Counted from the stretch's first letter, positions 2,294 to 20,726 are shown. The stretch: DNA of 64,000 bases from a virus (IMGVR_UViG_3300043540_000321:96001-160000), one strand, 5' to 3'. Translations and numbers: made by a program. Notes: generated by a model from the sequence alone, not told the origin.

Positions 2294-2869
2294 ATGGGAT
2301 GTTTTGATTCTACGTGTGCGTTTACTCGAACAGCCGTTGGAAGTGGAGACGAGATACTTATCGTGGCTCTCGATCCAAAGTCTTACTGCTGTTCCGGAGG
2401 TGGATTTACGACTTATGATTTGTCGAATAATGCTGGTTACTACAAGCGGGTGAAGACCAGCGAGGATATGCCCAACCCGGTCAGCCCTTTCAGATTTCTG
2501 GGAATTGGACACTACAATTCCTACGGAACGATCGACGAGTTTGACAACGACGCTGGCCTCGAACAAGAAGAGAGAAGCTGGTGGGATTACCAATTCATTG
2601 TCCACAGAGAGGTGGCTGAAGGTCTGCTCAACAAGAAGTTAGACCCAAACAATCTGGAAGATGATGTCATTAGGTTGATTGAGATAGCTTACTTGGCTCG
2701 CGTCCAACTTCATGGAAACGACCTTCTAGGCGTTCAGCACGCCGATAAGGCAGAAAGAGTTCTACAACTTAAGCTGCTCGGGTTGGCTACAACAATCCTG
2801 GAGCGAGAGTTAGAAATGCTAGAGGATGATGAAGAGGATGATGACGATTGGTACGACGATGAAGATTAA
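2294..2869 (+). CDS. hypothetical protein with acidic C-terminus
   Basis: 191-aa ORF, AAGGAG RBS, D/E-rich tail. Confidence 0.7.
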   Translation: MGCFDSTCAFTRTAVGSGDEILIVALDPKSYCCSGGGFTTYDLSNNAGYYKRVKTSEDMPNPVSPFRFLGIGHYNSYGTIDEFDNDAGLEQEERSWWDYQFIVHREVAEGLLNKKLDPNNLEDDVIRLIEIAYLARVQLHGNDLLGVQHADKAERVLQLKLLGLATTILERELEMLEDDEEDDDDWYDDED

Positions 2870-4431
2870 AGTGAAGTTGGATTAGGGTCCGTGTTCTGAT
2901 CTGCTGACTTATTCTTAGGAGCAGAGGTTCCTATAGGACGGCCAGCTCCGACTCCCTGACCTTTCACACTCCCTCTCTTCGTGCCGCCGGATTTCTTCTT
3001 AGAACTCGAGGCGGCGGGTGCAGGGGCGGGTGGTGGCATTTTAGGAACAATGAGCATTTTGTTCACAAAGTCACGATCCGCTGGCTCTTGCGGGCGGATG
3101 GGGGAGTCTACCATCTCACGGACCATCTTCCAGTCATCTGGGTTCATTGGGTTAAAGTAACCTCGGTCGGTCAATCCGCTAATCATCTGCATCAACGCGA
3201 CTCGATCTTCGGGTCGCGTTGTTTGTCTAATGTCCATGCGGGGGCAGATGCCCGCAGAGTCGCGCCCCCGAAACGCATCTTTAATCAACCGATGGAAAGT
3301 CTGGGAGAGGATGGGTCGGATGTACTCTGCGTGGATACTGGTCAGGATGCGATTGAACAACTCCATCTGACGCTGGGTCATCTTACCGTCAGAGCGAGGG
3401 TCGTTTGAGACCAGACCGTAAGGAACGAGCAGCGCCCGCGCAATCTCCTGGTTGCACAGCTCCATCGCATCAATATACATCGACCCGACATTATTTCCCG
3501 AGGTCACAATATCGACCTTTGGAATCATATGCGGGTCAACCTGGGGCAGCAGCAGAACGTTGCCGCCTCCAGTAAAAGCTTCGTTCGTAAGTTGTCGTTC
3601 GATCAACTCTTGCGTTGTCAGGTTGCGTTCCTGCCCTGTTTCAGGGTCTATCTCAACCTGACCTGTGGTATAGACCGGGTAAGTGATCGCAATGATAGGA
3701 TTTCCGTAGCGGTCGAGGGCAACCGAGTACATGTCTGCGAACGCCTCTTTATAAAGGCACCACCGGTAGGCAGACTCTATGAGAGGTACTCCGTAGTAAT
3801 TTCCATATGCCTCGTTTCTAACTAGGTGACAGACTTTCCAGAGAGGGAGCCTAACCTCACCCGCAACCTCCGGGTTTACCCCTGTCTGCCAGATGCCTGA
3901 TTGCAGACCTGTCCAGGAGGGCTCGCCATCCGTTAACCTACCCCGTCGATTGGTCCGCACCAAGATAGAAGCGGGATGGTAAGTGATGAAGTCGCTGATC
4001 CAGAGCTTCCCTTCATCGTCGACATCAAACAGCATTTCGGTTGTGCTGAAACCTGCCCACATGACATCGAAGATCATGCGGAAAAATCGAGAGTACAGAA
4101 AACTGAACCGAAAGAGCTTGTCTTCGGCGTTAAACCCACCCAGTCGTTCGATGTTCTGACGAAGGTACTGCTCAATCTCCGGATCGGGATGGGTAATCTG
4201 CCCCAACGAGGCGAGTAGAGTGTCGATCAAAACAAACAGGCAATAGCTAACCGTGCTGTCTGTCTGTGCGATCGTATGAAACTCTCGCAGTCGCTCAAAA
4301 TGTCGAGGTCTCAGCCAACCCCCGGAGTACCCGATCGCGTAAGCACCGAACTGCTTCATCCGACCGCGTGGGCGCTCGTTTTTATTAAACTTGACGTGAG
4401 CAAGGTTGATTGGAGTTTCCGGCCAGTACAT
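2866..4431 (-). CDS. portal protein (Mu gp29/DUF935-like)
   Basis: 521 aa; YYGVPLIESAYRWCLYKEAFADMYSVALDRYGNPIIAITYP resembles the DUF935 portal core; near the Mu I-like protease. Confidence 0.75.
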   Translation of the reverse strand: MYWPETPINLAHVKFNKNERPRGRMKQFGAYAIGYSGGWLRPRHFERLREFHTIAQTDSTVSYCLFVLIDTLLASLGQITHPDPEIEQYLRQNIERLGGFNAEDKLFRFSFLYSRFFRMIFDVMWAGFSTTEMLFDVDDEGKLWISDFITYHPASILVRTNRRGRLTDGEPSWTGLQSGIWQTGVNPEVAGEVRLPLWKVCHLVRNEAYGNYYGVPLIESAYRWCLYKEAFADMYSVALDRYGNPIIAITYPVYTTGQVEIDPETGQERNLTTQELIERQLTNEAFTGGGNVLLLPQVDPHMIPKVDIVTSGNNVGSMYIDAMELCNQEIARALLVPYGLVSNDPRSDGKMTQRQMELFNRILTSIHAEYIRPILSQTFHRLIKDAFRGRDSAGICPRMDIRQTTRPEDRVALMQMISGLTDRGYFNPMNPDDWKMVREMVDSPIRPQEPADRDFVNKMLIVPKMPPPAPAPAASSSKKKSGGTKRGSVKGQGVGAGRPIGTSAPKNKSADQNTDPNPTSL

Positions 4432-5708: not shown

Positions 5709-6014
5709 ATGACTATGTATTGTGACCTAGAAATTTATTGGGAAGGGTCTGTAATAGCCCTATTAGACGGAGAAACAGACTTCGTCGAACCCTTTATTAA
5801 AACAGTTCGAGAGATTACGTCGGCTAAGATTGACTGGCACCGCTTCGAAGGAATAGCCCGCGTTCTTTGCCTGGTCGATTCTAAGGAAGAGTGGGACACA
5901 GTCTTCAAAACACTTCTATCCGAATACGATAAGCTGCCTGATAGTCAGAAAGACTTGGTCGACAAAGAGTTAAGGATAATGCGAACACATCCCAATTACC
6001 CAGAAGTCGATTAG
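5709..6014 (+). CDS. hypothetical protein
   Basis: 101-aa ORF with AAGGAG RBS. Confidence 0.65.
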   Translation: MTMYCDLEIYWEGSVIALLDGETDFVEPFIKTVREITSAKIDWHRFEGIARVLCLVDSKEEWDTVFKTLLSEYDKLPDSQKDLVDKELRIMRTHPNYPEVD

Positions 6015-9000
6015 CTGTAGCTATCTGAGACCGTTCCCATCAGTTCAGCTCTGCGGCTCGCAGTATCCTCAAACTCAGTTGCAATGGGAGTACTCTCGTC
6101 ATTAATGACGACTAGGCCTCCCATAATGTCCTGCTCAAGCTGTGTAGGAATGGCCGAGATATCAAAGTCGATCCGTTGGTTATCGTCCGTGTCAAGGACT
6201 TCATACTCCTGCTGTTGACTAAAAATATCTCTCAACTCCATCTCAGTTCGGTCGACCTGCTCGCCCGCCTCCTCTAGCAAATCCCCGACTCGGTCTGGGA
6301 TATACTCTCCAATCAGCGTTCTCTGCTGAGTAGCCCCTCTAGCGATCGACAAAGACGCAATCGTACTGAGAACTTCTGCCCCAACCGTAAGTAGAGCGGA
6401 CTTCCCGGACGGGGTCTCGTGTGTGCGACCGCTAAGTTTATCGACAAGGGCGTGAGAGACCGCGTTGATTCCGGCGAACATCGTCTCCTGAGTAAACCCT
6501 TGAACCGCACCCAGCATAAACCCTTCTGTTGCCATTGAGTTCTTGATGCGAGAGAGGGAGAATGCCACAGCAGCATCCTGAGAGTGTCCAGATAGCTGAG
6601 CGGTGGCCGTATCTTTCTGACTGCTCAACATCGCTACAGCCTGAAGGGTATCGAACCCGAACTGCCACATCCGATCGTCGAACTTAGCCCCAGCTCCAGC
6701 CGCCGCCAGCAGAAGGGGCGCGGTAAATGCCCCAAACATACTGGCATGTCGTTCGGACTTCTCCATCGCTCGAAGGTTCTCCACCGGAGTCTTTCGATCG
6801 AGAGGCGCGGCTGAAAGTTCAGTCAACTTCTCCTGAACATTTCGAAGAACCTGGTTTGCTTCAGGAGTCGTTCGGACAACCCCCATCTGCTGCACCTTGT
6901 CAAAGTTGATCTCCCCATGCTCATAGATGCCCGCCAACTGTCTTCGCATAGACTCGGCATAGCGTATCGAGTTCTCATCCTGCTCATGTAAACTCCCAAG
7001 GCTCTCTAGCTGGTCGAAGAGACCGTAGACCCCCTGAGAAATAGCTCCGGATGTTTTCTGGAGAACAGCAAGAGGGGTACGACCACCTGGAGACGTGAGC
7101 ATCGCTTCTGTCAAGATGGCCTGCTCCCCACGACTTAACCCAGGGAGTCCAACTCCCATCAGTTGAGCCGCTCGCTGTTGGTTAGTGGGTGACATGGCCG
7201 ATAACTGGTCGTAACCCCTCAGTCCCTGAAACTCAGCCAACTTGTAGTAGGCCATATAGAGGGCATCGGAGGGCATCAGTTGTTGCCCTCGCTGCAACAT
7301 TCGGATGTAAGCGTTGTAGGTATCGATGTTGGCCCCTATCATTCGTTCGGTAATGTCACCTGACCCAAACCGAACTCTGGAGGTCGCTTGGAAACTCTCT
7401 CGCAAGCCTTTAATCTGATCTACGGAGAGAACACCGAACTCTTTATTTCGATGCTGAATTTTAAGGAGAGTGGACTCTTGCACCAAGCGCTCGTTTAGCT
7501 GCCCCAGGTCAGAAGTCGCAGACCGCTGCTGCTCATACTCGGAGACCAGGTCATAATACTGACGGTCTATGCCAGACAGTTTATTGCTGTCAGCCTCCGC
7601 GTGAAAGTCTCTCAACTGGTCAACATAGAATTGCTTAAAGTCAGATGAGAGAGTGGAGCTGATAAAGGCGGCCTGCGATCGCTCGAGTAAACCCTGGATC
7701 TGAAGTGCTGCGAAGTCTGCGACATTAGAAGCTCGACGCGACAACCTTGCTCGACGATACTCTTTCTCCAGCCCAGGCTGTTCCACGAACCGTTTGTGCA
7801 GGTCGGTCTCGTCATCCGACATGGCGAACTCAGCCAACCGAAGCAGGGCACCGAAACCCGTTATCCCCGGATCGTGAACCTGACCTTCTCTTAAACGAGC
7901 GGCTGTTCCTTCCAATCCAGGTGGCGTTGAGATGTCTGGACCCAGTCGAGTCGAGACGACCTTCTTAATTAGGTCTATGCGGTCGCGGTCGGTCTCCGCC
8001 TCTTCGATGAGTTGAGATAGGGGTTTGCCATTGGCATCTGCCTGGCGGAGAATGCCGATCAAACCTTTCTCCGATTTCTCCTTCAAGGCATCTCGAATGA
8101 GCTGCTGCATCGTACCGAGAGTCCCAACGGTACCACTGTAATTCTCCAGCAACATTCCTCGGAGTGAGGACGTGTTATCCATCAATTTCTCTCGAAGTCC
8201 GCGGATCTCCTTCCGACGACGAACGTCTCCTTCTCGCTGCTGCATAGCCAGAAGGTTAGTGTCCAACGTTTGCTTGAATGATTCTGCTCCCGTTGTTTGC
8301 AAGCCAGCCGAGATAGACTGACCCATGATCGCCCTGTCTAACAGGGGAATTAATACGTTGTAGGTCTTTCCAATCAGCTCGGTACCGGCCTGCCCGATAG
8401 TTGCTTGTAACCCCTCCATCTCAAAAGGATTAACAATTGTACCGGCTGCCTTCTTCAGACTTTTATTAATTTGCTCAACGCCCATCGCCACGTTCGCCTG
8501 AAATGCAAAGTAGTCTCTGGACTTACTCAAAAATCCCTCGAGAGTGTCACTTCTAGAATGTGTAGTCAGGGCAGACCACTGACTGCGAATGTCTTCAGGC
8601 AATTGACTGAAGCGGGCGTCTTTCTCCAACCCAGACAACTCTGGCGAGAAGGGAACGCCTCCTTGTAGAGGGTCAAAGAACTTCTGTAGAGCTGCGAGTC
8701 TTTCCTCCGTTTTATGAAGATGTGAGCGGGCATCCTCTATCTGAGGCATTGTGCCGGAAAGCTGCTGAACCATTGCCATCAACGTTCCAGTTGAGACCTT
8801 CTGCTCGTTATTGATGATGAAGTCTGGAAAGGCTACATAGCTGCCAACCCACTTCCGTACGTCTTTCAGAGCGCGAGATGGTGTTCGATCAAGATGAAGA
8901 CTATTTTTATTAACCTCTTCGATACCTTCTGTCAGTTGTTGATAGTGCGTCTCAAGCTCGCCTCTCAGGATTTCAGCCTGTTCGCTAAGAGAGCTCATCT

Positions 9001-12000
9001 TATATAGATGCCCGGCGTCATCGATATCAATATCGAGGTGACGATCAACTTCCGCTTCTATTCGTGTTAGTTGCCGGGTCTTGCGGGCAATATCTTTCTG
9101 AATCCCATGAAGCTCAGCCGCCCGCTTCGTTGTGTTGGTCAGCAAGAATTGGTAGGCGTCCCCATCATAGTCACCAAGCATTGAAAGCAGTCGACCGACC
9201 GCCGGAGCCGCCATCATAGTTCGAGACCGCTCTGTGTTGGGTATCAGCCCACCTCCGGCCTGTCGTACTCTGTCCTGGATAGTCGAAAGGTCTACGGCGT
9301 TATAGACATTCGTTTCGTTTGTCAGTCCGGCTGACCCCGCCGGAGCACCCCCTCTTCGAACGGCCCCTTTCGAAAGGGCCAGCACGTTAGACAGCTCGGA
9401 AGTCCTGCTGTTTAATAAATCCTGTACCCGCGCCTGCGGCAGGTTAGTCATCGCACTGATAGTTGCCGCCTTAAGGTCTAGAACCTGTGTGGCAGATAAC
9501 TTTCTCTCTCGAATGCTCTGCTGGGCACTTTCAAACATCAAATCGAGAGAGTGCCGAGACATGATGCCCGATTTGTCGTCTAGCTCCGGTCCTTTTAACC
9601 CGATCGAGTTAATCAACTTCCGGGTGACTTCCAACATTCGAGCCCCGTGCTCCGGCGATCGCAGGGAACTCTGCTCGATCAGGTTGAACTGAGCGCTGAG
9701 CATCTGCCCAAAGTTCCGATCTTCAACCAAGGCGTGGAACCTCTTGCCCAGTCCCACCTCATCTGGATCCAGGGCAAAAGAACCGACGGCGATGCCAACC
9801 GCACCTTCGAAAGTTTGGCGGTCGCCCATCGCCTTACGAACAAAGTCTGTCCCCAACAAATGGACCAGACCTAAACGACTATTTTCTAAACTATCCTGGA
9901 AGGTCTCTAACTTCCTCTTCTCTGCCTCACTAATGATGGCCCCGGGCTGCATGAGTCGTCCGCGCAATTCCTCTGTCTCAACCAATTGGCGGCGAACGTC
10001 AACTTGGTGGCGCAAACCTTCATCGATATATTGCGGGAAGATGAAGCTGATAGACCGGAGGATGTCCGTTCCCATCAACACACCAAGAGATGGTTTATAG
10101 CGCTGGGGGTCTAAAAGTGAAACGCGATAGCGCCCATCATTTGTAGATTCAAGTGAGAATTTAGGCAGAACAATCTGCTTCGTTGTTCTTACCTCAGATA
10201 GGAGTGCTCTGACCTGTCCATCCCAGGGAACTTTCTCCTGCCTCTCAGATAACTCTGTTTCAAGATGCAGGGCTCCTTCAACGAACTGTTTATAAAGATT
10301 GGTATTTAGGTTTTCTCTAATCGCATTAGCCTGGCGATCGCTAAGCTCCTTCAACCGAGATTGGACCTTACGCCGGATGACTTCATCATCCGAACTCAAG
10401 GGGACACCCACCAGGCGATGACTTCCCTGACTTAATTCGCTAATGACTTTGTAGTGACGCTCAAGCTCTGAGATCGCCCGCCCGCCCTGACCAGACTCAA
10501 CAAAATCTTGGAAGGAGACGGATTCCTCACCGGTAGCTCGTCGGACTCTTCGATCGGCGACAAAACGAGAGTAGGAGTCTGAGACTAACTTTGTGACTAT
10601 CTCCATCGGTGAGAGGCGGCGGTCACCGTCTTTTGCGTACGTCTCACTTAGATGGAGTTGTTTCATTAAGCGCTTCGTCTGCAGCCGGCCCGCCGGGGAG
10701 TCTTGGTCGGAAAAATAAGGTACTCCGTAAGTCCGACTTAAGGTAACGCCCCGTTCTTCAAGGTGGGTCTGCCCTTCCCCGGCAAAGGTCGTAGCTATCT
10801 GCTGCAAATTAATAAATCTTAGGAGGTATCCTCGCTCAGTACCTGGGCGCGTACCAACGCCTCGAATGGCGTCGTTGAGCAGACCCATCTTGTAGCCGAG
10901 AGATGTGTACCCCAGAAGGAATCGTTGAGTATCTAGATGGAATCGACTGGTAAATCCAGGTTCATCTGATGGGAGCGCGAGGCGATACTCCATCGCGGCG
11001 TTTGGGTCTTGCAGTCCGAGAGTCAACGACCCTGACAATACGGCAAATGCTTTATGTACTTGCTGTGCTCCGTCTCCAGCGATCGGCTTGAAGGCTCGCA
11101 GATAGGCTGAACTCAATCCAGTCAGGTATTGATACTCCAGGGCAACTTCGTCTTTGCTGCCCGCAGGAACGAGCGACCTGGAGACAGACATGTCTCGAAG
11201 GTCTTGAATGATGAAATCGTTCTTGATGTGAGCTTGTAAAAGCTCCATCGTCGACTTGACTTTGTGCCGGGGGTCGTCTGGTTTAAGCGACAGGTTTGCG
11301 TTCGCGGCGACCGCGTCCACCATATTGCGATAACCCGGATCGGTGTAGTACCGGTCTATGTCAGATAGATCTTGCTCAAATAAGGTGCCGACACTGGCTC
11401 CTGGAGCCGTAGACCGTCCAAAGATTTGTTTCGATATAAAGGCGGTGTGTGCCAACAGCCCAGCCCCTCGAACGATGAGACTTCCTTCGTTCAGCCCCAC
11501 CCGACCCTGACTGAATCGAATAGAGTGAGCTGGGTCAGAAACAGCCGCCGTAATGAGTTTGCCTGCTTGACGTTTCAGGTGCTTAGAAGCACCTTCATCT
11601 CCCCTCAATGCTTTAATGACAGTCTGCTTCAGGCTAGATAAACTGCCGGTTTGGACATCTTTATCCGCGTTCACACCATCGGCGAGTAGGGTTAGCCCCA
11701 AGGCAACTTTCCCTAAGGTGGATGCCGGACGTCCCTCGTCATCTACTTTGGCAAAGTCGGTGCCCTGAACCATTGCGATCGCATGAGCAACAAACTCTAA
11801 GTTCGACCGTTTCAAATTTCTCTGTAGCTCAGTCTTGACCGTTTCATCCCCCAGAAAAAGAAGGGATAAAGACCGAGCCAGTTCTTGACCCGGAAGACTT
11901 TGTAACGCTTCCCGACTCGATCGCTGACTCAGAAGGTAGATGCCTGACTCATAGTTGAATCCCTTAAAGTGAGAGAACCCAAACAACCCGTAGACCTTTT

Positions 12001-15000
12001 CACCTCGAACAGGCTCTGGCATTAAAGACCCTGGGTCTCGCTTGGAGAAGGTTTGCTGAATGTCTTTGAAGAGAGACTCTTCTATAACGGTGAATGGCCC
12101 CTTAACCAGCCCGGCACCGGCTGGACGCGAGCCACTACCCGCTCTCCACACCGCCATTGCATCAGTAGTAACTGAGATGAGTCCACTCTGAGATACATTA
12201 ACGTGGGGATCTTCGGTAATAACCGAAACACCTTCCTGATGACGTTTGCCGAACGCACCGAATTTTACAGTGAGGGTTTGTCGCCTTCTGCCCCACATCG
12301 TCTCTGCAAATGATGCCGCTTCCTCAAGCTCAATAAGACCTTCGCGACTGAACTGGGCCGTCCTTTGATAATCACCTTTTTCTTGATCATAGTTATAAAG
12401 ACCTTCCTTCAAATAAAGTTTGAGTTCGCCCCGGTCTCGTTTTAAGAGGTAGTGCGCGTAGCGTCCGCCGTCAAACTGCTCCAGCTCTGTCTGGAGTTGG
12501 GTGTCTCGGATGCTTGGATTTTCGGCTGTCCTCTCAGCTAGAAGTTGAGATACCCTTTGATTCTCTGCTTCAATAGGAGCCCCGATGACTACACTGCCCT
12601 TCGCGAGATAACGGCTGAGTATACCAATAGTCTCAGTTTGAGACTTAATCTGCTTACTTGAGACTTTAACCGTGACTCGTTGAGGGTCGCCCAGGTCAAG
12701 CTTGTAGCCTGAGTTAACCCAGCTCGAGTCGCCCACTAATGAGACTCCTCCAATAAGAGCAACTCGCTTCATAGCCCTGGGACCTATAACCCCGTGGTAA
12801 GCGTTGTTTGGGTCCATCTCAGCCTGGCGGAAGTACTCTTGAACCTTCTCGAAATCTCCGTTGTATTGAGACGCTACTCTCTTAACCTCTGCAAACTGCA
12901 TAGCGGGGAGAACTTCACGAAGGCGACCAGACACCAGAGAGTCAGCCTTCAACTCTGCCACGCTATGAGAGAGCGATCGCACCTTATCGGCCATCTCACT
13001 ACTGATATCGATGGCTGGGCGGCTGCCTCCCACGTTCTTCAAACGTTGTGGGATCTGTTCGGGTTTCGGGAAGGGGAGCAAGAACATCGTGTCTTGCTCC
13101 TCGGTGATTGCCTGGGCCGATCGCTTACTGACTAATAAAGTCTGGAGTTGCTGAACCTCCTTTGACCACTGCTCTCGACTAACAGAAGCTAGACCGGCAG
13201 TGCCCTTCAAGAACTTTTCCATGTCATGGGCCGTCGCCGCTCCGATGCTGATGTCAGAGTCCACCACCGTTAGCTGTCTTAGCCCGCCATACGCTGTAAT
13301 CTTCAGCGGTTTTGCTTGAGTCACCGCACCTACCGCTCGGTAGAACTCCCCTGCTTCTCCCAGACGAGTACCAGACTTCACCTCAGCCGGGTCTAAGACA
13401 CCGGCTGCAATAACTCGGTCATAGGTCGTGTCTAATGGGAATTTACTCTCTTGAGAGTAAACTGGCAGACGAGCCACTGCTTGCAGCCCCGAGTATCCAA
13501 GCTCGTGAGCAGCCAGGAAGGGAGCCGCCAGGTCAGAGACAATTCGATAGGTCTGAGTGGACTGGGCCGCGAAGAACTTTCTTCGGTTCTCATCGGAACG
13601 AAGGAGAAGTTTTAACTTCAGGTCTTGGAAGAGATTCTGCTCATCGAGAAGAAGGACATCCGTCAATCGATGCTGAGCGAACAAATCTCCCTGGTGTTGA
13701 AGGAGCTCATCGAAAACGACCCGGAGATAATTCTGTCGCTTGGAAAAGTCCGCCTCGGACAGCGTGCGCGTGTAATCTTCTATTGGAGAATCGACTCCTG
13801 CTGCCAACACCCGCTGCGCCTGGTACACAGTAGATGAAGGGGAGATTCCTAATTCTTTAGACGCGGACTTAATACCAGACATCATCGTCCGCAGGTTCGC
13901 TCGTCCCTGTCCGGACTCGACAGCCTGGGCTACTTCTGGAGCAACCATCGCCAAAGATTCCGCGATGATGTCGCGTGCCGCCGCATGTAAATCTCCCGGA
14001 CGCTCCTGAACCATTCGGTTGAACAGAGAGTTCACCAGAGAGTATCTGGACTGATAGCTCAGCTCTCGAGACACCGTAGCTATGAAGGACACGGCAGTCT
14101 CCATTCCAGAAAGTTGGGTAGACTTTCCAGGTTGAATCTTACGTCCGAACAGAGAGATAGGAGAGGACGATTTGTTCGCAAAGACAGACCCAGGAATGAG
14201 CTTGTTCTGATCGACCAGGATTACGTTTCCGTGGCGATCGACTGTCAAGTTGATTATGAGAGAGCCGGATATGGAGTCAACACCTCGAACACGAACCTTC
14301 AGTCCAGTCTGTGAAGCTGGGGAGTCTGGGCCGGTCTTAAGAGTGTATCGCCCCTCAACCTCGATGACTGAGCCTCCAATTTCACGATTCAGTTTCTCCA
14401 GAGCTTGTCGGAGCTGCTCCACCTGAGAGACGTCCGCGTTACGCTCAGCCAAGAATCCCGTCTTGTATAACGTCTGCCCGCGGTCCATCTTTTTGAGCAG
14501 GTCGCCCGCAGATAGCACGTTATAGTGCTGCTCCAGTTTTGACTTCTGCTTCAACTCCTGCAGATAGCCGTCCGGGTCCAGCCGTTTCTGAACTGGGCGG
14601 TGCTCGTCGCGATAGCGGCCCGCACCAACTGCGACTACCGTGTCCAGGTTGATGGGAGATTCTGGGTCGAAATCTGTGAACGTTCGCTTCGCTGCATTCA
14701 GAGCGTTATTAAAATATTCATCCTGGAAGCGATTGAGCTGCGAGACTGGAATCAATGAATCGGCGGAGAAGTTTGCAGACCCCACACTTAAGAACATCAA
14801 CTTCTGGTCAGTCCCTCCAAAAATTGAGATGGATTTGTCATGTTGATAGCCCGTCGTCGCCGTCCGGATCGAACCCGTGTCTATGAGCAGTCGAATAAAG
14901 GTCTCATCAACTCCAAGTGCCTGCGTGCTCCCTCCAAACTTTGCATCTCGAAGTGAGTCGAAGAACCCAGACAGCCGAGAGTTATCGGTAACGATCGTCA

Positions 15001-16198
15001 GTCGCTTCTGCTCTGCCAGAGTACGAACCGCCTGGATCAAGTCCTGAGCATACCCTCTCGATCTCAATATGAGACTCAACTCGCCCATTGAGATAACAAC
15101 CTGATCGCCGTTGGCGACTGAGTTTGGATCGAATGCAGCCGTTCTCAATGCACTGGTGATGCGACCGTAAATCTCGGACTCCACGTAGAGGAACCCCCGA
15201 CTGGTGCCGTCGGCTGCCATCTGTTTTCTGAGACCACCGGGCTGGTAAGAGAACTGCTGAGTCGACCTCGCCATCCGAGTAATCGTGTCAGTCAACGTCA
15301 TGATCTCGCCAGCGATCGCTGCTTCCGTCTGTGTCGACCGCTCCGTCTCAGAGCTAAGAGCATTCCGCGTTGATGGTCGATTGAAGACCATCAGGGTCTC
15401 AAGCGAGTTGTTGTTCGCCAGGGCGGGCGTGATGTTCTGGGAACCGATGAACGCTCGATATCCTCTGCGATCGTCTCCGGCATAACCGATCTTCGGGTGG
15501 AAGGAGGCTGTTGCATCCACTCCAACGATCGGACTCTCCTGGAGTCCACGTTGTTGTTGAAGTAGCTGGCCGACATCCAGTGAGAGTCGGTTTCCAGCGA
15601 GGATCTGCCCAGTCGTCTCCCAGTCCTTCCGAACCGTTGCCGGATCGCCTGGAGCATATCTCAAGTCCTGCGTGACGATCGACCAGGGACTCCTGCGGCT
15701 CGTTAGAGAAGAGACGATAGACTCCTGTTGAAACTGAAAGAAGACTGCTTGCAGCGTACCCGGCTGGAAGAGGGCACGGTACTCCTCAACACCTGGTCGT
15801 GGTATGAACCCGGTGGGTGGGGTATGTGCCTGACCTGCCAGTTGAGACGGGCGGGCAAAGTTATTGACGGTGGGAGCCGAATTTATTAAACGCTGGGCCA
15901 GACCTGAAAAGACCTGCCCCGCCTGTTGAGAAGGTCTTTGAAAAGAAGTTGCCTGAGTGTCTGCGATAATGCCCAGACCATCCCTGGCAAAGCGTTGAGT
16001 GATCCGGAATGGGTCGCCCTGCTCCGTCTGCAGATAGTCCGAGACAAAGTCGTCAACGGGTGAGGTGAAGGCTGACCGAGTACCGCCGTACCCGGCAGGC
16101 GGAGTGTCTGGACTACCCTCCGACCCAGACTGAGACTCGGGGTTGAGAGGTAGCCCTTCTTCGTCATACCCACCGTAAGGAAGCTCTTCTTCGTCCAT
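6011..16198 (-). CDS. giant (3395 aa) putative virion protein with N-terminal PLD-like domain and a two-barrel RNA-polymerase-like catalytic motif
   Basis: Two HxK...GSxN motifs (FHPKIG...IGSQNIT; QHDKSIS...VGSANFS); RRGGAP ... APAVGRLLSMLGDYDGDAYQF at aa ~2280-2350; located in the morphogenesis block. Confidence 0.6.
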   Translation of the reverse strand: MDEEELPYGGYDEEGLPLNPESQSGSEGSPDTPPAGYGGTRSAFTSPVDDFVSDYLQTEQGDPFRITQRFARDGLGIIADTQATSFQRPSQQAGQVFSGLAQRLINSAPTVNNFARPSQLAGQAHTPPTGFIPRPGVEEYRALFQPGTLQAVFFQFQQESIVSSLTSRRSPWSIVTQDLRYAPGDPATVRKDWETTGQILAGNRLSLDVGQLLQQQRGLQESPIVGVDATASFHPKIGYAGDDRRGYRAFIGSQNITPALANNNSLETLMVFNRPSTRNALSSETERSTQTEAAIAGEIMTLTDTITRMARSTQQFSYQPGGLRKQMAADGTSRGFLYVESEIYGRITSALRTAAFDPNSVANGDQVVISMGELSLILRSRGYAQDLIQAVRTLAEQKRLTIVTDNSRLSGFFDSLRDAKFGGSTQALGVDETFIRLLIDTGSIRTATTGYQHDKSISIFGGTDQKLMFLSVGSANFSADSLIPVSQLNRFQDEYFNNALNAAKRTFTDFDPESPINLDTVVAVGAGRYRDEHRPVQKRLDPDGYLQELKQKSKLEQHYNVLSAGDLLKKMDRGQTLYKTGFLAERNADVSQVEQLRQALEKLNREIGGSVIEVEGRYTLKTGPDSPASQTGLKVRVRGVDSISGSLIINLTVDRHGNVILVDQNKLIPGSVFANKSSSPISLFGRKIQPGKSTQLSGMETAVSFIATVSRELSYQSRYSLVNSLFNRMVQERPGDLHAAARDIIAESLAMVAPEVAQAVESGQGRANLRTMMSGIKSASKELGISPSSTVYQAQRVLAAGVDSPIEDYTRTLSEADFSKRQNYLRVVFDELLQHQGDLFAQHRLTDVLLLDEQNLFQDLKLKLLLRSDENRRKFFAAQSTQTYRIVSDLAAPFLAAHELGYSGLQAVARLPVYSQESKFPLDTTYDRVIAAGVLDPAEVKSGTRLGEAGEFYRAVGAVTQAKPLKITAYGGLRQLTVVDSDISIGAATAHDMEKFLKGTAGLASVSREQWSKEVQQLQTLLVSKRSAQAITEEQDTMFLLPFPKPEQIPQRLKNVGGSRPAIDISSEMADKVRSLSHSVAELKADSLVSGRLREVLPAMQFAEVKRVASQYNGDFEKVQEYFRQAEMDPNNAYHGVIGPRAMKRVALIGGVSLVGDSSWVNSGYKLDLGDPQRVTVKVSSKQIKSQTETIGILSRYLAKGSVVIGAPIEAENQRVSQLLAERTAENPSIRDTQLQTELEQFDGGRYAHYLLKRDRGELKLYLKEGLYNYDQEKGDYQRTAQFSREGLIELEEAASFAETMWGRRRQTLTVKFGAFGKRHQEGVSVITEDPHVNVSQSGLISVTTDAMAVWRAGSGSRPAGAGLVKGPFTVIEESLFKDIQQTFSKRDPGSLMPEPVRGEKVYGLFGFSHFKGFNYESGIYLLSQRSSREALQSLPGQELARSLSLLFLGDETVKTELQRNLKRSNLEFVAHAIAMVQGTDFAKVDDEGRPASTLGKVALGLTLLADGVNADKDVQTGSLSSLKQTVIKALRGDEGASKHLKRQAGKLITAAVSDPAHSIRFSQGRVGLNEGSLIVRGAGLLAHTAFISKQIFGRSTAPGASVGTLFEQDLSDIDRYYTDPGYRNMVDAVAANANLSLKPDDPRHKVKSTMELLQAHIKNDFIIQDLRDMSVSRSLVPAGSKDEVALEYQYLTGLSSAYLRAFKPIAGDGAQQVHKAFAVLSGSLTLGLQDPNAAMEYRLALPSDEPGFTSRFHLDTQRFLLGYTSLGYKMGLLNDAIRGVGTRPGTERGYLLRFINLQQIATTFAGEGQTHLEERGVTLSRTYGVPYFSDQDSPAGRLQTKRLMKQLHLSETYAKDGDRRLSPMEIVTKLVSDSYSRFVADRRVRRATGEESVSFQDFVESGQGGRAISELERHYKVISELSQGSHRLVGVPLSSDDEVIRRKVQSRLKELSDRQANAIRENLNTNLYKQFVEGALHLETELSERQEKVPWDGQVRALLSEVRTTKQIVLPKFSLESTNDGRYRVSLLDPQRYKPSLGVLMGTDILRSISFIFPQYIDEGLRHQVDVRRQLVETEELRGRLMQPGAIISEAEKRKLETFQDSLENSRLGLVHLLGTDFVRKAMGDRQTFEGAVGIAVGSFALDPDEVGLGKRFHALVEDRNFGQMLSAQFNLIEQSSLRSPEHGARMLEVTRKLINSIGLKGPELDDKSGIMSRHSLDLMFESAQQSIRERKLSATQVLDLKAATISAMTNLPQARVQDLLNSRTSELSNVLALSKGAVRRGGAPAGSAGLTNETNVYNAVDLSTIQDRVRQAGGGLIPNTERSRTMMAAPAVGRLLSMLGDYDGDAYQFLLTNTTKRAAELHGIQKDIARKTRQLTRIEAEVDRHLDIDIDDAGHLYKMSSLSEQAEILRGELETHYQQLTEGIEEVNKNSLHLDRTPSRALKDVRKWVGSYVAFPDFIINNEQKVSTGTLMAMVQQLSGTMPQIEDARSHLHKTEERLAALQKFFDPLQGGVPFSPELSGLEKDARFSQLPEDIRSQWSALTTHSRSDTLEGFLSKSRDYFAFQANVAMGVEQINKSLKKAAGTIVNPFEMEGLQATIGQAGTELIGKTYNVLIPLLDRAIMGQSISAGLQTTGAESFKQTLDTNLLAMQQREGDVRRRKEIRGLREKLMDNTSSLRGMLLENYSGTVGTLGTMQQLIRDALKEKSEKGLIGILRQADANGKPLSQLIEEAETDRDRIDLIKKVVSTRLGPDISTPPGLEGTAARLREGQVHDPGITGFGALLRLAEFAMSDDETDLHKRFVEQPGLEKEYRRARLSRRASNVADFAALQIQGLLERSQAAFISSTLSSDFKQFYVDQLRDFHAEADSNKLSGIDRQYYDLVSEYEQQRSATSDLGQLNERLVQESTLLKIQHRNKEFGVLSVDQIKGLRESFQATSRVRFGSGDITERMIGANIDTYNAYIRMLQRGQQLMPSDALYMAYYKLAEFQGLRGYDQLSAMSPTNQQRAAQLMGVGLPGLSRGEQAILTEAMLTSPGGRTPLAVLQKTSGAISQGVYGLFDQLESLGSLHEQDENSIRYAESMRRQLAGIYEHGEINFDKVQQMGVVRTTPEANQVLRNVQEKLTELSAAPLDRKTPVENLRAMEKSERHASMFGAFTAPLLLAAAGAGAKFDDRMWQFGFDTLQAVAMLSSQKDTATAQLSGHSQDAAVAFSLSRIKNSMATEGFMLGAVQGFTQETMFAGINAVSHALVDKLSGRTHETPSGKSALLTVGAEVLSTIASLSIARGATQQRTLIGEYIPDRVGDLLEEAGEQVDRTEMELRDIFSQQQEYEVLDTDDNQRIDFDISAIPTQLEQDIMGGLVVINDESTPIATEFEDTASRRAELMGTVSDSYS

Positions 16199-16201
16199 TA
16201 A

Positions 16202-16468
16202 TTAGAAGCGTGTCGCCGGAAACAAAATGGCGGAGATTTGAGAATAGAGAATACTGAGTTGGTTGATTTCGTGCGCGGTGAACCCCTCCTGCTTAGACTT
16301 GTCTTTGAGACGAAAGATTAATGCCTGAATATCATTCAGGTCGTAGAATCGAATTAGAAATGCGATCGCCTGACTCTCTGTCATGGATGTTTCCTGACAG
16401 AACCTAGAAAGCCAGATTCTATTTCCGTCTCGAGTGGGCGGGGTCTTATCTGCATAGAAAGGGATCAT
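16202..16468 (-). CDS. hypothetical protein
   Basis: 88-aa ORF directly upstream of the giant gene on the same strand. Confidence 0.6.
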   Translation of the reverse strand: MIPFYADKTPPTRDGNRIWLSRFCQETSMTESQAIAFLIRFYDLNDIQALIFRLKDKSKQEGFTAHEINQLSILYSQISAILFPATRF

Positions 16469-16485
16469 TACACTACCTATTACCT

Positions 16486-16830
16486 ATGGAACCTTGCATT
16501 AATCCGATTGAAATGCTGGTGTTGGACACGCGCAAGAAGGGACTACTTCACAGATTAAAGTTCTTGTGGAGCGTTTTGGTGGGCGACGATGTCGTCCTCT
16601 CTAACGGGAAAGCGACCCTCTACGTCAAGAATGGCCGACTTACTGTAGTCGCTGAAACGATTATCTTTCGGTACAAACTTTTGGCAATCAACTGCGACGA
16701 AGGCTATATCCAGGAGCGACTCGAGGAATTCAACACCGTAGAAGGGGCGACTCGGAAGGAGCTGCCGTACAAATCGACCGCGATCGGGGCTAACGCCGAG
16801 GAGGAAGAGTGGACAGCTTGCGAGCGCTAA
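16486..16830 (+). CDS. hypothetical protein, possibly baseplate-associated
   Basis: 114-aa ORF overlapping the PAAR gene; function inferred from context only. Confidence 0.5.
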   Translation: MEPCINPIEMLVLDTRKKGLLHRLKFLWSVLVGDDVVLSNGKATLYVKNGRLTVVAETIIFRYKLLAINCDEGYIQERLEEFNTVEGATRKELPYKSTAIGANAEEEEWTACER

Positions 16831-17117
16831 GGGTTGGCGACCCTGTTCAATGCACCTGTGCCTGCAACGGTTCTATCTGCCCCAACGGGGTCGTCCTTCA
16901 AGGAAGTTCGACGACGTTTGTGGACAATCGCCCACTGGCCCGTGTAGGTGACATGTGTTCGAACTGCTGCGGTTCTTGCTGTCCCTGTCCGAATCCCATA
17001 CTCACTGGGAGCCCGTCCACCTTTGTGGATAACCGACCCGCCGCTACGAAAGAGAGCTTGATCCGCTGTGGGTTTGCTCAAAATGCTTCAACAACGACGT
17101 TCATAGGTAAGTCATGA
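16809..17117 (+). CDS. PAAR-domain spike tip protein
   Basis: LRVGD...GSSTTFVDNRPLARVGD...GSPSTFVDNRPAA repeats; Cys-rich. Confidence 0.9.
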   Translation: MDSLRALRVGDPVQCTCACNGSICPNGVVLQGSSTTFVDNRPLARVGDMCSNCCGSCCPCPNPILTGSPSTFVDNRPAATKESLIRCGFAQNASTTTFIGKS

Positions 17118-17248
17118 ATTTTCTACAAGAATTATTTAGAACGGTTTTCATCATCTCACTCTCTACAGGAGCATTGCTTCTATACGCATACCTCGTGATC
17201 GACCAACCCATCTGCGACTCTTTGTTGTCCTATTTCTTCTGTAAATAG
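17114..17248 (+). CDS. small membrane protein (44 aa)
   Basis: Manual translation MNFLQELFRTVFIISLSTGALLLYAYLVIDQPICDSLLSYFFCK; exactly fills the gap between neighbours. Confidence 0.55.
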   Translation: MNFLQELFRTVFIISLSTGALLLYAYLVIDQPICDSLLSYFFCK

Positions 17249-18247
17249 ATGCTTGACCTACTGGATACCAACGTCATTGACCCGTTTGCGGAAGACCCTA
17301 CCTACACCTGGACATCGACTGAGCAGTATCGAAGTCGAGCGGACGGGTCCATCCTGGAGAGGCGATTTTCAGAACTGAGTCTCTCCACACAGCTATCTTT
17401 AGGCCTGGTGACAGGTACTCCACCTGGGTATCAGGTCAGTCTTACAAACCCTCAATACTTCTACTACACTCTGACAAATCCTCTTACAGAAACTGTATCG
17501 ATAGGCTATCGATACGCCCCTGGCGCTCAAGCGTATAACAACTTCTGGGGATGGAGGCAGTTGGTGAACTACTACTACAAAAACAGCATTTACGCCGACC
17601 TGCTGGTGAACGAATACGTCTGGCAGTTGCGATCGCTCCCTTCTTCGGGAGGGACACCGCAGGATCTCCTATATCAATTCAATGGAGCCGGACAGGTCGT
17701 CTCATCTCAAACCACCTCCACTGATTCACTCACCCTAAACCTGGGTCAGACCTGGGGTGTGAGATTGATGATGACTCGAGCAGACCTGGCAACTGTCTCT
17801 GTTATGTCTGCTTCGTCGAACGGTTCGACAATTGCGACCGTTCCAATGGCGCTGCGATATGATGTGCCGGCCCCGCCCCTGGCGAACCCCGCGTTCTCCT
17901 CGGATTTATTAATAAAGGCGGCCACTCCGACTCTTCTGACCTACCCCTACCTGAAAATCCAATTGAGCATCACCCGTCCCTACATCTCCAGTGGTGGCAG
18001 TGGCGGCAGTGGTGGCAGTGGTAGCGGAACAGCCACCATACAGGCGGTCGACGAGCTGAGGATCTTCACCTACGGAGTCTATAACTCGATGAATGTCCCG
18101 CTGTACGACCTACAAGACAATGGTTGGATTACGCATCCGACAGGAACGAGCGATGTAGCTCGATTAAAACCTCCTGGAAAAGCATATTTGTCAGACACCT
18201 ACAATACCCCCGCTCAGACCTTTACAGCAAATGCAATGTGGCGATAA
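17249..18247 (+). CDS. putative virion structural protein
   Basis: 332 aa, rich in T/S/Y/G, GGSGGSGGSGSG linker; follows PAAR. Confidence 0.45.
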   Translation: MLDLLDTNVIDPFAEDPTYTWTSTEQYRSRADGSILERRFSELSLSTQLSLGLVTGTPPGYQVSLTNPQYFYYTLTNPLTETVSIGYRYAPGAQAYNNFWGWRQLVNYYYKNSIYADLLVNEYVWQLRSLPSSGGTPQDLLYQFNGAGQVVSSQTTSTDSLTLNLGQTWGVRLMMTRADLATVSVMSASSNGSTIATVPMALRYDVPAPPLANPAFSSDLLIKAATPTLLTYPYLKIQLSITRPYISSGGSGGSGGSGSGTATIQAVDELRIFTYGVYNSMNVPLYDLQDNGWITHPTGTSDVARLKPPGKAYLSDTYNTPAQTFTANAMWR

Positions 18248-18460
18248 ATGGCAAGGAAGAAAGAAAAAGAGTTTATAGGTTGGAAAATTACAACTCACAG
18301 AACGCAAAACTATAAAGTCCAAGACCTGGTTCACTGCCAGTGCGGCGGAGAGCGCTGGGTTTATCGATGGAGCTGGGCTGGAAATGGTTTAGCTCAATGC
18401 CCAACATGCGGAAAGTGGTGGAAGTACGAAAGGAAATTTCAATCAGAGGAACCGAAATGA
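18248..18460 (+). CDS. small zinc-ribbon protein
   Basis: HCQCGG...QCPTCG motifs. Confidence 0.55.
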   Translation: MARKKEKEFIGWKITTHRTQNYKVQDLVHCQCGGERWVYRWSWAGNGLAQCPTCGKWWKYERKFQSEEPK

Positions 18461-18765
18461 TCGATAAACGCTGGTATGAGGCAACCGTTCAAGAGGCTGC
18501 CCATTTTATTAATCAGTCTCATCCCATCAAGGTGAGACTTTCTACACAATGGACCGACCCAGACTATCCTCTCGGGGAGATAGAGTTTACGGCGACCCAC
18601 GCATTTAGCAGCTTGGATTCATATAAGCTATATTCAGACGAGCTGAAGGCGTGGACTTTACCTATTCCAGGAGATGTTTCGATCGAGGTGGACAACCCCT
18701 TCGTAACAGCTAACATCCCAACCCGTCCTTTCTCAGAGACCTATCGAGGAGTTTCGATCGAGTAA
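18457..18765 (+). CDS. hypothetical protein
   Basis: ATG overlaps the previous stop (ATGA); in frame with track ORF 18340..18765. Confidence 0.6.
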   Translation: MIDKRWYEATVQEAAHFINQSHPIKVRLSTQWTDPDYPLGEIEFTATHAFSSLDSYKLYSDELKAWTLPIPGDVSIEVDNPFVTANIPTRPFSETYRGVSIE

Positions 18766-19412
18766 TGTTAAAGCGTAGAATGTTCCCCCTTATCGTCGGG
18801 TTCGCAGGAGCGTCCGAAGTCGGTAAAGATAAGGCCGCTGACTATATGGTTGAGCAGTTCGGATACGAGAAGTACGAACTTAAAACAGACCTTATCAAAG
18901 AGGTTAACAAGCAATACGACCTCGACCCCTATAAGTTGAGAGGGCAAACACCGGAGGATAAGAAATGGCGGAGGCAACCTCAGCCGACCCTAGCTGGGAG
19001 ATGTCCTCTGGACATAATGATCGATATTGGCGAGAGGAGGCGGGAGCTCAATCCTACTTACTGGTTAGACTTACTGATGGCATCTCTGCGGGAGCCTTTA
19101 GAGAAGCAACCGATCGTCATCTCTGATGTGAGAAGGTTTGCAGAAGCAGACCGAATCCGCCAGCTAGGTCTACTGCTTTATCTTGAGCGGGGGAACCCTA
19201 CTTTTAGTAAGGCTGAGCGAGAGCTGGAGCAGGTCAAGCAGATCGCTTTTCGTGTGATCAACAATAACGAGTCCTTAGGCGCGTTGTATGTCCGGATCAA
19301 TGGAAGTTTAAGACTATGGGCATCTCGAACGTTATCGTCGCAACCATCGGAGGAGTCGCCGCTATATTCGGCAGCACGGCGATCGCATTTGCTGTCTTTG
19401 CATTCGCCCTGA
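18765..19412 (+). CDS. deoxynucleoside monophosphate kinase (T4 gp1-like)
   Basis: VGFAGASEVGKDKAADY P-loop variant and VISDVRRFAEADRIRQLG motif. Confidence 0.85.
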   Translation: MLKRRMFPLIVGFAGASEVGKDKAADYMVEQFGYEKYELKTDLIKEVNKQYDLDPYKLRGQTPEDKKWRRQPQPTLAGRCPLDIMIDIGERRRELNPTYWLDLLMASLREPLEKQPIVISDVRRFAEADRIRQLGLLLYLERGNPTFSKAERELEQVKQIAFRVINNNESLGALYVRINGSLRLWASRTLSSQPSEESPLYSAARRSHLLSLHSP

Positions 19413-19540
19413 AGCCGGGAGAGTGTGTCAAGTTGACTGTCCTCGGGCAGGAGCAAAGTGCTTGCAAGACTACTGTCCTGAGGTCATCATTCTATCCGCC
19501 GTCCTCGCCATCTCCGGCACCGAATGATACGGGTAATTAG
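19316..19540 (+). CDS. small single-TM protein
   Basis: Hydrophobic N-terminal half and Pro-rich tail; holin/spanin-like role unproven. Confidence 0.45.
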   Translation: MGISNVIVATIGGVAAIFGSTAIAFAVFAFALKPGECVKLTVLGQEQSACKTTVLRSSFYPPSSPSPAPNDTGN

Positions 19541-20219: not shown

Positions 20220-20658
20220 TCAAAAATTCACCGATAGGGTCTTTCCACCTCAGAGATCAATATTCGATAATGGAAGTGAAGTCTATTCACGTTCTACTGT
20301 GACGACAACTCAAACAGCAAATAAGCTTGAACTGGTAAACCAAATTCTATCCAGAATGGGTACCCGGTCAGGCTGGATTATTAAAGTATTGGGTCAGCGC
20401 AGAGGAGTCGAGGACATTATCGTTCTATCGCTAGAGAAGCCTGTATCCTCTCTAGTGAGTGAGCGAAGAGTTCGGGTTGAGGTTCCAAAGTCTTCGATAG
20501 GCAGTAGCCTACCTAAGGCCATTGCCTTAGCCATTATTAATAGCTGTAAGCAGGTCTCCCCTCGAGGGGTACATCATATTCCAGGGACTACCGTTATGGG
20601 CCAGACTAACGAGTCCGTGACGATTCGCCTTGAACAGAAACAATTAAATGTCCGATAA
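20029..20658 (+). CDS. hypothetical protein (true start probably ~20220-20300)
   Basis: Open frame; the 5' part overlaps the previous gene. Confidence 0.45.
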   Translation: MTGRKEMRRSCGHESIPTGMVREKNGLLLVWEIPRRELLTTRRGGWTVSQMPLLSTDNSSSRINQKFTDRVFPPQRSIFDNGSEVYSRSTVTTTQTANKLELVNQILSRMGTRSGWIIKVLGQRRGVEDIIVLSLEKPVSSLVSERRVRVEVPKSSIGSSLPKAIALAIINSCKQVSPRGVHHIPGTTVMGQTNESVTIRLEQKQLNVR

Positions 20659-20684
20659 TTAAGCCAAGAGTAGAAGAAGAACAG

Positions 20685-20720
20685 GAGGGACGCTAAACTA
20701 AAGGCGGTCCCTCTTTATTT
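20685..20720 (+). terminator. putative intrinsic terminator
   Basis: GAGGGACGCT...AGGCGGTCCCTC followed by TTTATTTT. Confidence 0.45.
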
Positions 20721-20726
20721 TCAGTT

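Follow-up and report, generated by a model that had tools for sequence, protein, structure and literature searches.

Certain bacteriophages inject an RNA polymerase (RNAP) into the host along with their DNA, and such enzymes decide how the phage takes over the cell. To our knowledge only four designs of injected RNAP have been described, those of coliphage N4, PhiKZ-type phages, crAss-like phages (gp66) and phage P23-45 (gp96). N4 gp50 (~3,500 amino acids) is a T7-like single-subunit (right-hand) polymerase that is ejected with the DNA, its N- and C-terminal domains serving ejection and packaging, and internalisation of the N4 genome is coupled to transcription by this virion RNAP. In phi14:2, a crAss-like phage, gp66 (PDB 6VR4) is a virion-packaged, single-chain two-barrel RNAP of ~2,200 amino acids encoded among structural genes. 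In P23-45 the pairing of a virion enzyme fused to the tape measure (gp96) with a non-virion enzyme (gp64) has been shown experimentally (PMC10770324). Here we describe a gene for a giant protein within a 64,000-nucleotide stretch of viral DNA (IMGVR_UViG_3300043540_000321:96001-160000; hereafter the window), which corresponds to bases 96001-160000 of a virus record consisting of a single contig of 195,211 bp. The most economical reading, which we hold to be probable without regarding it as secure, is that the giant protein is a virion-delivered single-chain beta/beta' RNAP that starts phage transcription. The phage probably injects its own enzyme, because one chain holds both catalytic halves of a cell-type RNAP.

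The gene lies on the minus strand of the window:

6011-16198, minus strand: giant gene, 3,395 amino acids with no cysteine, frame open for 3,395 codons

These limits agree with the open reading frame (ORF) given in an initial annotation made from the sequence, which had proposed a virion-packaged two-barrel RNAP. The alignment with homologues begins at Met1, and the database gene call (P0002, 3,217 amino acids) starts 178 codons further on. A word-indexed search recovered seven homologues of 3,250-4,800 amino acids, at 21-45% identity and on contigs of up to 220 kb. When a family profile covering residues 1250-2449 was scanned against 1.84 billion cluster representatives it retrieved 80 proteins, 67 of them at E<=1e-30 and nearly all 3,000-5,400 amino acids long. 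The family amounts to ~80 sequence clusters, uncultured and without annotation, that diverge down to ~20% identity; in the literature we found no paper linking it to a polymerase.

Eight residues are common to all two-barrel RNAPs: D837, K979 and K987 of Rpb2, and R446, P448, D479, D481 and D483 of Rpb1 (PMC2919709). All family members were aligned to a hidden Markov model of the first eight, and judged from this alignment the family has a candidate for each of these positions (D1157, R1358, K1366, R2282, P2286 and the three aspartates of DYDGD), located as follows:

12728-12730, minus strand: candidate D1157 (GDSSWVN), equivalent of Rpb2 D837 / beta D814, from conservation and its G-D-S-S-x-x-N context
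12101-12127, minus strand: candidate basic loop R1358...K1366 (GSRPAGAGLVKGP), equivalent of Rpb2 K979/K987, from conservation and the 8-residue spacing
9341-9355, minus strand: candidate R2282-G-G-A-P2286, corresponding to the beta' R-x-P element (R in 67/72 members, P in 65/73)
9158-9172, minus strand: conserved motif DYDGD, residues 2343-2347, predicted metal-binding loop of double-psi beta-barrel A (DPBB-A)

D1157 is present in 70/70 members and N1162 in 68/70, in a D-S-x3-N pattern that we take to resemble the EDSxxxN of Rpb2. R1358 (70/71) and K1366 (71/71) are 8 residues apart, the same spacing as K979-K987 (PMC2919709), and are accompanied by P1368 (67/71) and K1412 (71/71). The aspartates D2343, D2345 and D2347 are retained in 66-67 of ~73 members. 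In the eight aligned homologues (21-45% identity) L-G-D-x-D-G-D, R2282, G2284, A2285, P2286, G2288, K1366 and P1368 are invariant, and R1052, N1055, G1151, E1688, G2610 and N2614 are further near-universal residues of the family. A D[FY]DGD pentapeptide would be expected ~0.004 times by chance in a protein of 3,395 amino acids, an estimate from residue frequencies; the argument for the motif being real is its conservation rather than this figure.

Most of what the initial annotation had read from the sequence reappears here. LGDYDGD is present at residues 2341-2347 and occupies nucleotides 9158-9178, three bases beyond the end coordinate first given (9175); it is preceded, as claimed, by MMAAPAVG (residues 2328-2335). 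RRGGAP is likewise present (residues 2281-2286), at 61 residues from the first aspartate and not ~65, and GLVKGPFTVI, put forward as a possible beta-like lysine motif, was found at residues 1363-1372 (GLVKGP at 1363-1368). Loss of the catalytic motif in homologues had been named as one of the outcomes that would speak against an RNAP; the motif is conserved in the eight aligned homologues and across the ~73 members.

The beta-like half was modelled with AlphaFold (AF2) from residues 1000-1780 and a 34-row alignment, giving a mean predicted local distance difference test (pLDDT) score of 81.3 and a predicted template modelling (pTM) score of 0.78. It comprises the following elements:

11099-13081, minus strand: beta/Rpb2-like module, residues ~1040-1700, a conserved PKPEQIPQRLKN block followed by double-psi beta-barrel B (DPBB-B), from AF2, Foldseek and VIA-align (VIA)
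12149-12697, minus strand: beta-rich insertion in DPBB-B, residues ~1168-1350 (~185 residues), flap/SBHM-like, from a Thermus beta-flap match

In a Foldseek search of the PDB the top matches are nearly all second-largest RNAP subunits (Pol I/II/III, bacterial beta, archaeal B, vaccinia Rpo132), the best scoring E 4.4e-3 with probability 0.99. VIA alignment on these matches reaches Z 8.3 over 278-313 residues, against Rpb2 756-1157 and vaccinia Rpo132 676-1028. The Rpb2 span contains D837, K979 and K987, with which the one aspartate and two basic residues found in the candidate DPBB-B would be equivalent. An exhaustive fold comparison, independent of Foldseek, was made over 48,161 representative PDB chains. 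The chains scoring Z>=5 number nine, every one an RNAP beta-type subunit: vaccinia (7.6), Pol I (7.2), Xanthomonas beta (7.2), Pol IV (7.0), Pol III (6.9), the plastid-encoded polymerase PEP (6.9), African swine fever virus (6.8), phage AR9 (6.1) and PhiKZ (6.0). The tenth chain, at Z 4.6, is an unrelated short helix. In the model, the region around GLVKGP thus takes the fold of the catalytic portion of a beta/Rpb2-type RNAP subunit, well separated from all other folds.

Two further matches bear on the type of polymerase. Between D1157 and R1358 the model (positions 169-351) aligns to the Thermus beta-flap (3woe_A) at Z 3.9, and lower in the exhaustive list designed double-psi barrels match at Z 4.2 over model residues 140-673, on both sides of the insert. 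Because the flap match lies inside and the barrel matches lie on either side, the beta barrel appears to be interrupted by a flap-like insertion. Such an SBHM/flap insertion is reported to be characteristic of the beta lineage of cells and jumbo phages and to be missing from the RNA-dependent RNA polymerase (RdRP)/YonO type (PMC7824862). The window protein carries this feature of the cellular-type (beta/beta') branch, and multisubunit beta chains match its model at Z 6-8, against a weak Z 4.2 over 149 residues for crAss gp66.

These fold relationships also bear on the possibility that the enzyme makes RNA for another purpose, namely replication priming, genome pulling by transcription alone, or RNA copying as by QDE-1. 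Two-barrel enzymes do include RNA-dependent polymerases and PolD, the N4 precedent couples DNA internalisation to transcription, and the early-gene role is itself a proposal. The fold matches, on the other hand, are DNA-dependent multisubunit enzymes, extending to the flap insertion reported as lacking in the RdRP/YonO type (PMC7824862), and neither QDE-1 nor PolD is among the top matches. Transcription-driven DNA pulling is moreover compatible with a virion-delivered RNAP that starts phage transcription and does not exclude it. We consider a purpose other than this distinctly improbable.

The beta'-like half was modelled separately (AF2, residues 1880-2800, 35 rows; pLDDT 75.0, pTM 0.49), and the following elements were recognised in it:

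8069-9826, minus strand: beta'/Rpb1-like module, residues ~2125-2710, from AF2, Foldseek and VIA
8888-9139, minus strand: long helical hairpin, residues ~2354-2437, immediately behind the catalytic loop (model helices 476-509 and 516-558)
8345-8443, minus strand: candidate bridge helix, G2586...G2602..G2605....G2610..Y2613-N2614...P2618, in 68-71 of 71 members
8075-8107, minus strand: QQxxRDxLKxK, residues 2698-2708, candidate start of the trigger element, where the alignments end

Of the top 50 Foldseek matches in the PDB, 49 are largest RNAP subunits, led by a beta' fragment of the AR9 non-virion RNAP (nvRNAP; 7s00_d, E 7.6e-3, probability 0.97), Thermus beta' and the PhiKZ nvRNAP (8que_A, E 1.6e-2, probability 0.97), so that the region around DYDGD finds its best matches in beta'/Rpb1-type chains, as the initial annotation would predict. 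VIA aligns model positions 246-828 (residues 2125-2707) with Rpb1 341-1081 and Escherichia coli beta' 343-934 at Z 8.0-8.6, a span that begins ahead of the active-site barrel, takes in the bridge helix and ends where the trigger loop starts. Inside this span, the candidate bridge helix corresponds to a 42-residue model helix (712-753, residues 2591-2632) with local pLDDT of 50-80. The alignments stop at QQxxRDxLKxK, opposite Rpb1 ~1081 and beta' ~934, where pLDDT is again 50-80 and where R2702, D2703 and K2706 are present in 71/71 members. Among predicted viral structures (BFVD), the model matches a giant protein of Microbacterium phage Burro (E 4.3e-4), phage 'DNA-directed RNA polymerase' subunits (E 4.5e-3 and 5.4e-3, probability 0.96-0.97) and a Ralstonia jumbo-phage beta', with a weaker match to a fragment of phi14:2 gp66 (E 2e-2).

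Taken together, it is well supported, and in our judgement highly likely, that a core of ~1,700 residues (~1040-2710) is a single-chain beta-beta' two-barrel RNAP. The modules come in the order beta-like, then beta'-like, as in rpoB-rpoC, with a connector of roughly 400 residues between them. The best structural matches for both halves are the multisubunit beta/beta' (Rpb2/Rpb1) enzymes and the split AR9 and PhiKZ enzymes (7S00, 7OGP, 8QUE), with which the window protein shares the module order, the flap-interrupted beta barrel and candidates for all eight active-site residues. It differs from them in holding both halves in one polypeptide fused to PLD-like and C-terminal modules, in having R-x3-P for R-x-P, and in lacking a detectable Pfam RNAP domain; no alpha- or omega-like partners were identified. 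Cellular beta' carries zinc sites, which the window protein would be without because it has no cysteine. The two-barrel reading of the initial annotation is supported. It had cited the P23-45 and crAss-like virion RNAPs as precedents; by its flap insertion and its best phage matches, AR9 and PhiKZ, the enzyme looks nearer to the multisubunit beta/beta' type than to the compact QDE-1, crAss gp66 and P23-45 one.

Like gp96 of P23-45, the giant protein hides a single-chain two-barrel RNAP that is recognisable only by D-F/Y-D-G-D, and the division of labour proposed between pre-early and later genes would be similar (PMC10770324). There is no detectable sequence kinship, and gp96 and gp64 chains are not among the fold matches listed. 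The gp96 polymerase makes up the tape measure's N-terminal ~1,200 residues and is compact and clamp-less; in the window protein the ~1,700-residue core is central, contains a flap-type insertion, has a PLD-like domain in front of it and is encoded apart from a tape-measure-like gene. P23-45 has a long non-contractile tail, while the window lineage has PAAR and, in Microcystis phage Ma-LMM01, sheath genes. With crAss gp66 the protein shares a single-chain two-barrel design and a place among structural genes, and may share packaging; gp66 is of the QDE-1-like compact type, 1,200 residues shorter, without the PLD-like domain and from a phage lineage other than this one with its Mu-like portal and PAAR. 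N4 gp50 is a functional analogue of the same size class, with a central polymerase and flanking domains, and of unrelated fold: searches of PHROG, Pfam and PDB sequences gave no match to it, and no such chain is among the listed fold matches of the two models. An N4-like (T7-type) polymerase, considered at first for its size, was dropped on these grounds and because both halves fit multisubunit-type chains. The family is functionally like crAss gp66, P23-45 gp96 and N4 gp50, structurally closest to multisubunit beta/beta', AR9 and PhiKZ enzymes, and unrelated to any of them in sequence; the PLD-like fusion, the avoidance of cysteine and a flap-bearing barrel within one chain are features not described for those enzymes.

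The family extends to a cultured phage. Searched with the family profile, Ma-LMM01 yielded a 3,565-codon frame at E 1.2e-6, which is gp80 (57700-68388; BAF36171.1, 'hypothetical protein'), and a BFVD fold match to an LMM01 'PLD phosphodiesterase domain-containing protein' has probability 1.00 at 17% identity over 700 columns. Only ~17-18% identical to the window protein, gp80 has the same order of motifs (HPK and HVK half-sites, QRLKNV, NLGDFDGD, GKTYN, LRDAIKPK), a single cysteine at residue 21 and a location next to, and divergent in orientation from, a structural block that contains the tail sheath gene. From these matches and the motif order we place gp80 as a distant member of the family. 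In papers that assign no function to gp80, Microcystis phages are stated to lack a phage RNAP and their temporal gene programme is described as unexplained (PMC5780444, PMC9927357); during Ma-LMM01 infection host transcription is almost unchanged (PMC5780444). The early-gene cluster of Ma-LMM01 (gp054-gp063) lies ~14 kb from gp80 and adjoins gp064, a hypothetical protein of 1,673 amino acids with 24 cysteines and no D-x-D-G-D motif.

Whether the enzyme travels in the virion was considered from its gene neighbourhood and composition. Genes around it in the window include:

1-1512: head-maturation protease, in the head-morphogenesis block
2866-4431, minus strand: Mu-like portal protein (Pfam Portal_Mu, E 7.8e-18)
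16809-17117, plus strand: PAAR spike-tip protein (Pfam PAAR_motif, E 1.6e-20)

In the window as well as in six related loci, no more than a few genes separate the giant gene from the Mu-like portal, the protease and a Phage_cap_E capsid gene, a linkage to head genes that persists where the relative orientation of the giant gene changes; the PAAR gene is usually on its other side (L002, L004, L005, L012 and the contig of P0006). Only seven cysteines occur in the ~290,000 residues of the family (82 sequences), all of them in shorter sequences of 305-2,725 amino acids, some of which are contig-end fragments. The phage's other ORFs of at least 200 amino acids contain a mean of 0.88% cysteine, and at this background rate the calculated probability of none in 3,395 residues is ~1e-13. 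The only other cysteine-free giant in the genome is a tape-measure-like protein of 4,700 amino acids. It is encoded outside the window (genome 51515-65617) and, like the 3,395-residue protein, starts with HxK...N PLD-type half-sites. BLAST found no significant similarity between the two giants; a tape-measure identity for the 3,395-residue protein was dropped on this account and because the tape-measure-like protein is a separate one.

The genome also encodes a second polymerase candidate:

27266-31594, plus strand: P0010, 1,442 amino acids, second polymerase candidate, RAP ~44 residues before DFDGD, 23 cysteines
31641-33782, plus strand: Dda/Pif1-type helicase, directly downstream of P0010

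P0010 is the only other D-[FY]-D-G-D protein among genome ORFs of at least 700 amino acids, and proteins of its type are fused to a helicase in two other metagenomic phages (~2,170 amino acids; P0092, P0093). Going by its motifs, it is probably a second, non-virion two-barrel RNAP. The two candidates are not detectably related by sequence, since comparing the two families by hhalign, with the beta'-like profile on one side and that of P0010 on the other, gives a probability of 0.2%; the P0010-family profile found no match in Ma-LMM01, which is no evidence of absence there. A cysteine-free giant in the head block and a cysteine-rich compact enzyme in the replication block would fit, by analogy, the pattern of a virion/non-virion polymerase pair.

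Several observations weigh against a virion-delivered RNAP. No sequence method ties the giant protein to any RNAP: Pfam and PHROGs searches with the whole protein and four pieces gave no RNAP match, and PDB sequences searched by phmmer with the protein and by hmmsearch with three family profiles (A1, A6, A7) returned chance-level matches only (taste receptor, designed proteins). Searches with both modules by blastn/tblastn against 50,697 phage records likewise found nothing. All fold scores are middling (Foldseek E ~1e-2, Z ~8), and the two halves were modelled as separate pieces, so that a shared cleft between the barrels is putative and the residue equivalences are candidates. In the exhaustive search with the beta'-like model, generic coiled-coil matches to the one helical hairpin behind DYDGD (residues 2354-2435) dominate and RNAPs are not prominent, so that the DPBB-A with its D-x-D-x-D loop is a moderate fold match inseparable from helical noise. 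Because this search gives no support either way, the beta'-like half rests on the Foldseek ranking and the invariant motifs, and its predicted fold is a weaker assignment than the beta-like one. The canonical two-barrel element is R-x-P, 30-45 residues ahead of the metal loop; R2282 and P2286 are near-invariant, yet their spacing is R-x3-P and their distance to D2343 is 61 residues. The initial annotation had likened the motif order to the RxP...P...DFDGD of beta'; in Ma-LMM01 gp80 the R and P are retained and the element reads R-S-P-P-P, compatible with either spacing. From the basic loop to the R...P element there are ~900 residues, much more than in known single-chain enzymes. Packaging and ejection, for their part, we infer from gene position, cysteine avoidance and the second polymerase candidate. 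Finally, published transcriptomics of Ma-LMM01 (PMC5780444) reported sigma-70-like sequences upstream of phage genes from every expression class, found no motif specific to the phage and describes the phage as using host sigma-70-type promoters.

The scores allow for a structural or ejection protein (inner-body, channel-forming or tape-measure-like) in which RNAP-like folds are a relic or chance and the enzyme is inactive. The middling fold values, the beta'-like half that the exhaustive search cannot tell from coiled-coil noise and the missing sequence-level link to RNAPs would all suit such a protein, as would the tape-measure and minor tail proteins that BFVD lists at E 0.03-0.2. A relic, however, would not keep the metal aspartates, the basic loop and the R...P element across ~80 clusters to ~20% identity, the beta-like match stands cleanly apart from every other fold, and the genome has a separate 4,700-residue tape-measure-like protein. 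This explanation we regard as very unlikely.

An active two-barrel RNAP might alternatively be a non-packaged cytoplasmic enzyme, for example for late genes, that lies beside the head genes by chance. All of the polymerase evidence fits this equally, packaging is a proposal, and the promoter sequences of Ma-LMM01 are host-like. Such an enzyme would have no obvious reason to avoid cysteine over ~290,000 residues, when P0010 has 23, nor would its linkage to portal, protease and capsid genes be expected to be conserved despite changes of orientation. Its 3,000-5,400 residues with PLD-like and C-terminal modules resemble instead the ejected giants N4 gp50, crAss gp66 and P23-45 gp96. A phage with two polymerases also needs one at hand before its own genes are expressed, if it is not the host enzyme that starts the programme. 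A cytoplasmic enzyme is in our view unlikely.

If the giant protein is a virion-delivered RNAP, its synthesis would fall late, together with the head proteins, and it would be packed into the capsid. Its exit by way of the portal and contractile tail would be in a largely unfolded state, in keeping with its complete lack of cysteine. Inside the cell it would fold again and transcribe the earliest phage genes, that of P0010 probably among them, after which P0010, as the candidate cytoplasmic polymerase, would take over.

The regions flanking the core have the following features:

14759-15811, minus strand: PLD-like domain, residues ~130-480, two HxK...(S/Q)N half-sites, from conservation and Pfam in homologues
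6011-7951, minus strand: C-terminal region, residues ~2750-3395, one hydrophobic helix, from a hydropathy scan

The first PLD half-site is H234-x-K236...Q254-N255 (nucleotides 15434-15499) and the second H453-x-K455...S474-x-N476 (14771-14842). Both are invariant, H234, K236, N255, H453, K455 and N476 being kept in 59-60 of the 59-60 members that have the region, but the aspartate of HxKxxxxD, belonging to the PLD signature HxK(x)4D(x)6G(S/T)xN, is absent. Three of the seven homologous N-termini are matched by Pfam PLDc_2 (best E 2.5e-6); for the copy in the window the only match is RE_NgoFVII PLD, a restriction-enzyme PLD domain, at E 0.094, and ~10 family members have no PLD-like domain. Possible roles are the cutting of host nucleic acid or of envelope lipid during entry. 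Residues 480-1000 are conserved across the family. In the C-terminal region P3161, R3217, G3230, E3238 and E3275 are conserved, and residues 3268-3286 (nucleotides 6341-6397) form the sole strongly hydrophobic segment.

In assembly GCA_042218125.1 the giant protein is found as two ORFs on two contigs, divided between the polymerase modules:

L010, 8001-13241: ORF 1, PLD-like domain and beta-like half, 1,746 amino acids, stop codon 25 nucleotides before the contig end
L012, 251-4978: ORF 2, beta'-like half and C-terminus, 1,575 amino acids, beginning 250 nucleotides into another contig

At least one relative thus appears, from its reading frames, to be split at the module boundary, like separate beta and beta' subunits. 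In another relative, L011, there is a break after the basic loop, with a gap of 617 nucleotides.

Whether the family is a third independent lineage of injected RNAP, a complete beta-beta' enzyme in a cysteine-free single chain with a PLD phosphodiesterase fusion, in a clade of large phages with contractile tails that is widespread and takes in the Ma-LMM01 group, we regard as evenly poised. If so, these phages, having also the second DFDGD enzyme, would be transcriptionally autonomous; this would overturn the published view of sole reliance on the host polymerase and explain why host transcription is almost untouched in Ma-LMM01 infection. As a fused cellular-type beta-beta' enzyme with a PLD-like domain, it would be a fifth design of injected RNAP, in a family that reaches cultured phages of the toxic bloom-former Microcystis. 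For evolutionary biology it would be another very deep branch of two-barrel polymerases, and the apparent two-gene split at the module boundary bears on the origin of beta and beta'. The family-wide absence of cysteine from proteins of 3,000-5,000 residues offers a simple marker, possibly a general one, for proteins that pass through the phage tail.

Other features of the window were noted around and beyond P0010. An intergenic element of ~44 nucleotides (GTCGCTGGG...CCCAGC.TGA.GAG...GAAAC) is repeated in 89% identical copies at 24386-24436, 24688-24704 and 25324-25367, upstream of small ORFs located before the P0010 gene. The initial annotation had labelled these repeats hammerhead ribozymes, and Rfam at gathering thresholds found no family in 16000-34000. 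Just upstream of P0010, a GAACCT hexanucleotide run (26963-27075) is translated as a (Glu-Pro)n tract towards the end of a 388-residue ORF (26090-27256). Between the giant gene and the P0010 gene, on the plus strand (20727-22981), a gene for an M50 site-2-protease-like membrane peptidase (E 1.1e-44) lies between two genes for M15 peptidases (VanX/VanY-type D-Ala-D-Ala), a trio unusual for a phage. At 61103-64000, also on the plus strand, a class II (B12-type) ribonucleotide reductase gene, interrupted by an intein that has a LAGLIDADG homing endonuclease domain (Pfam), runs off the end of the window.

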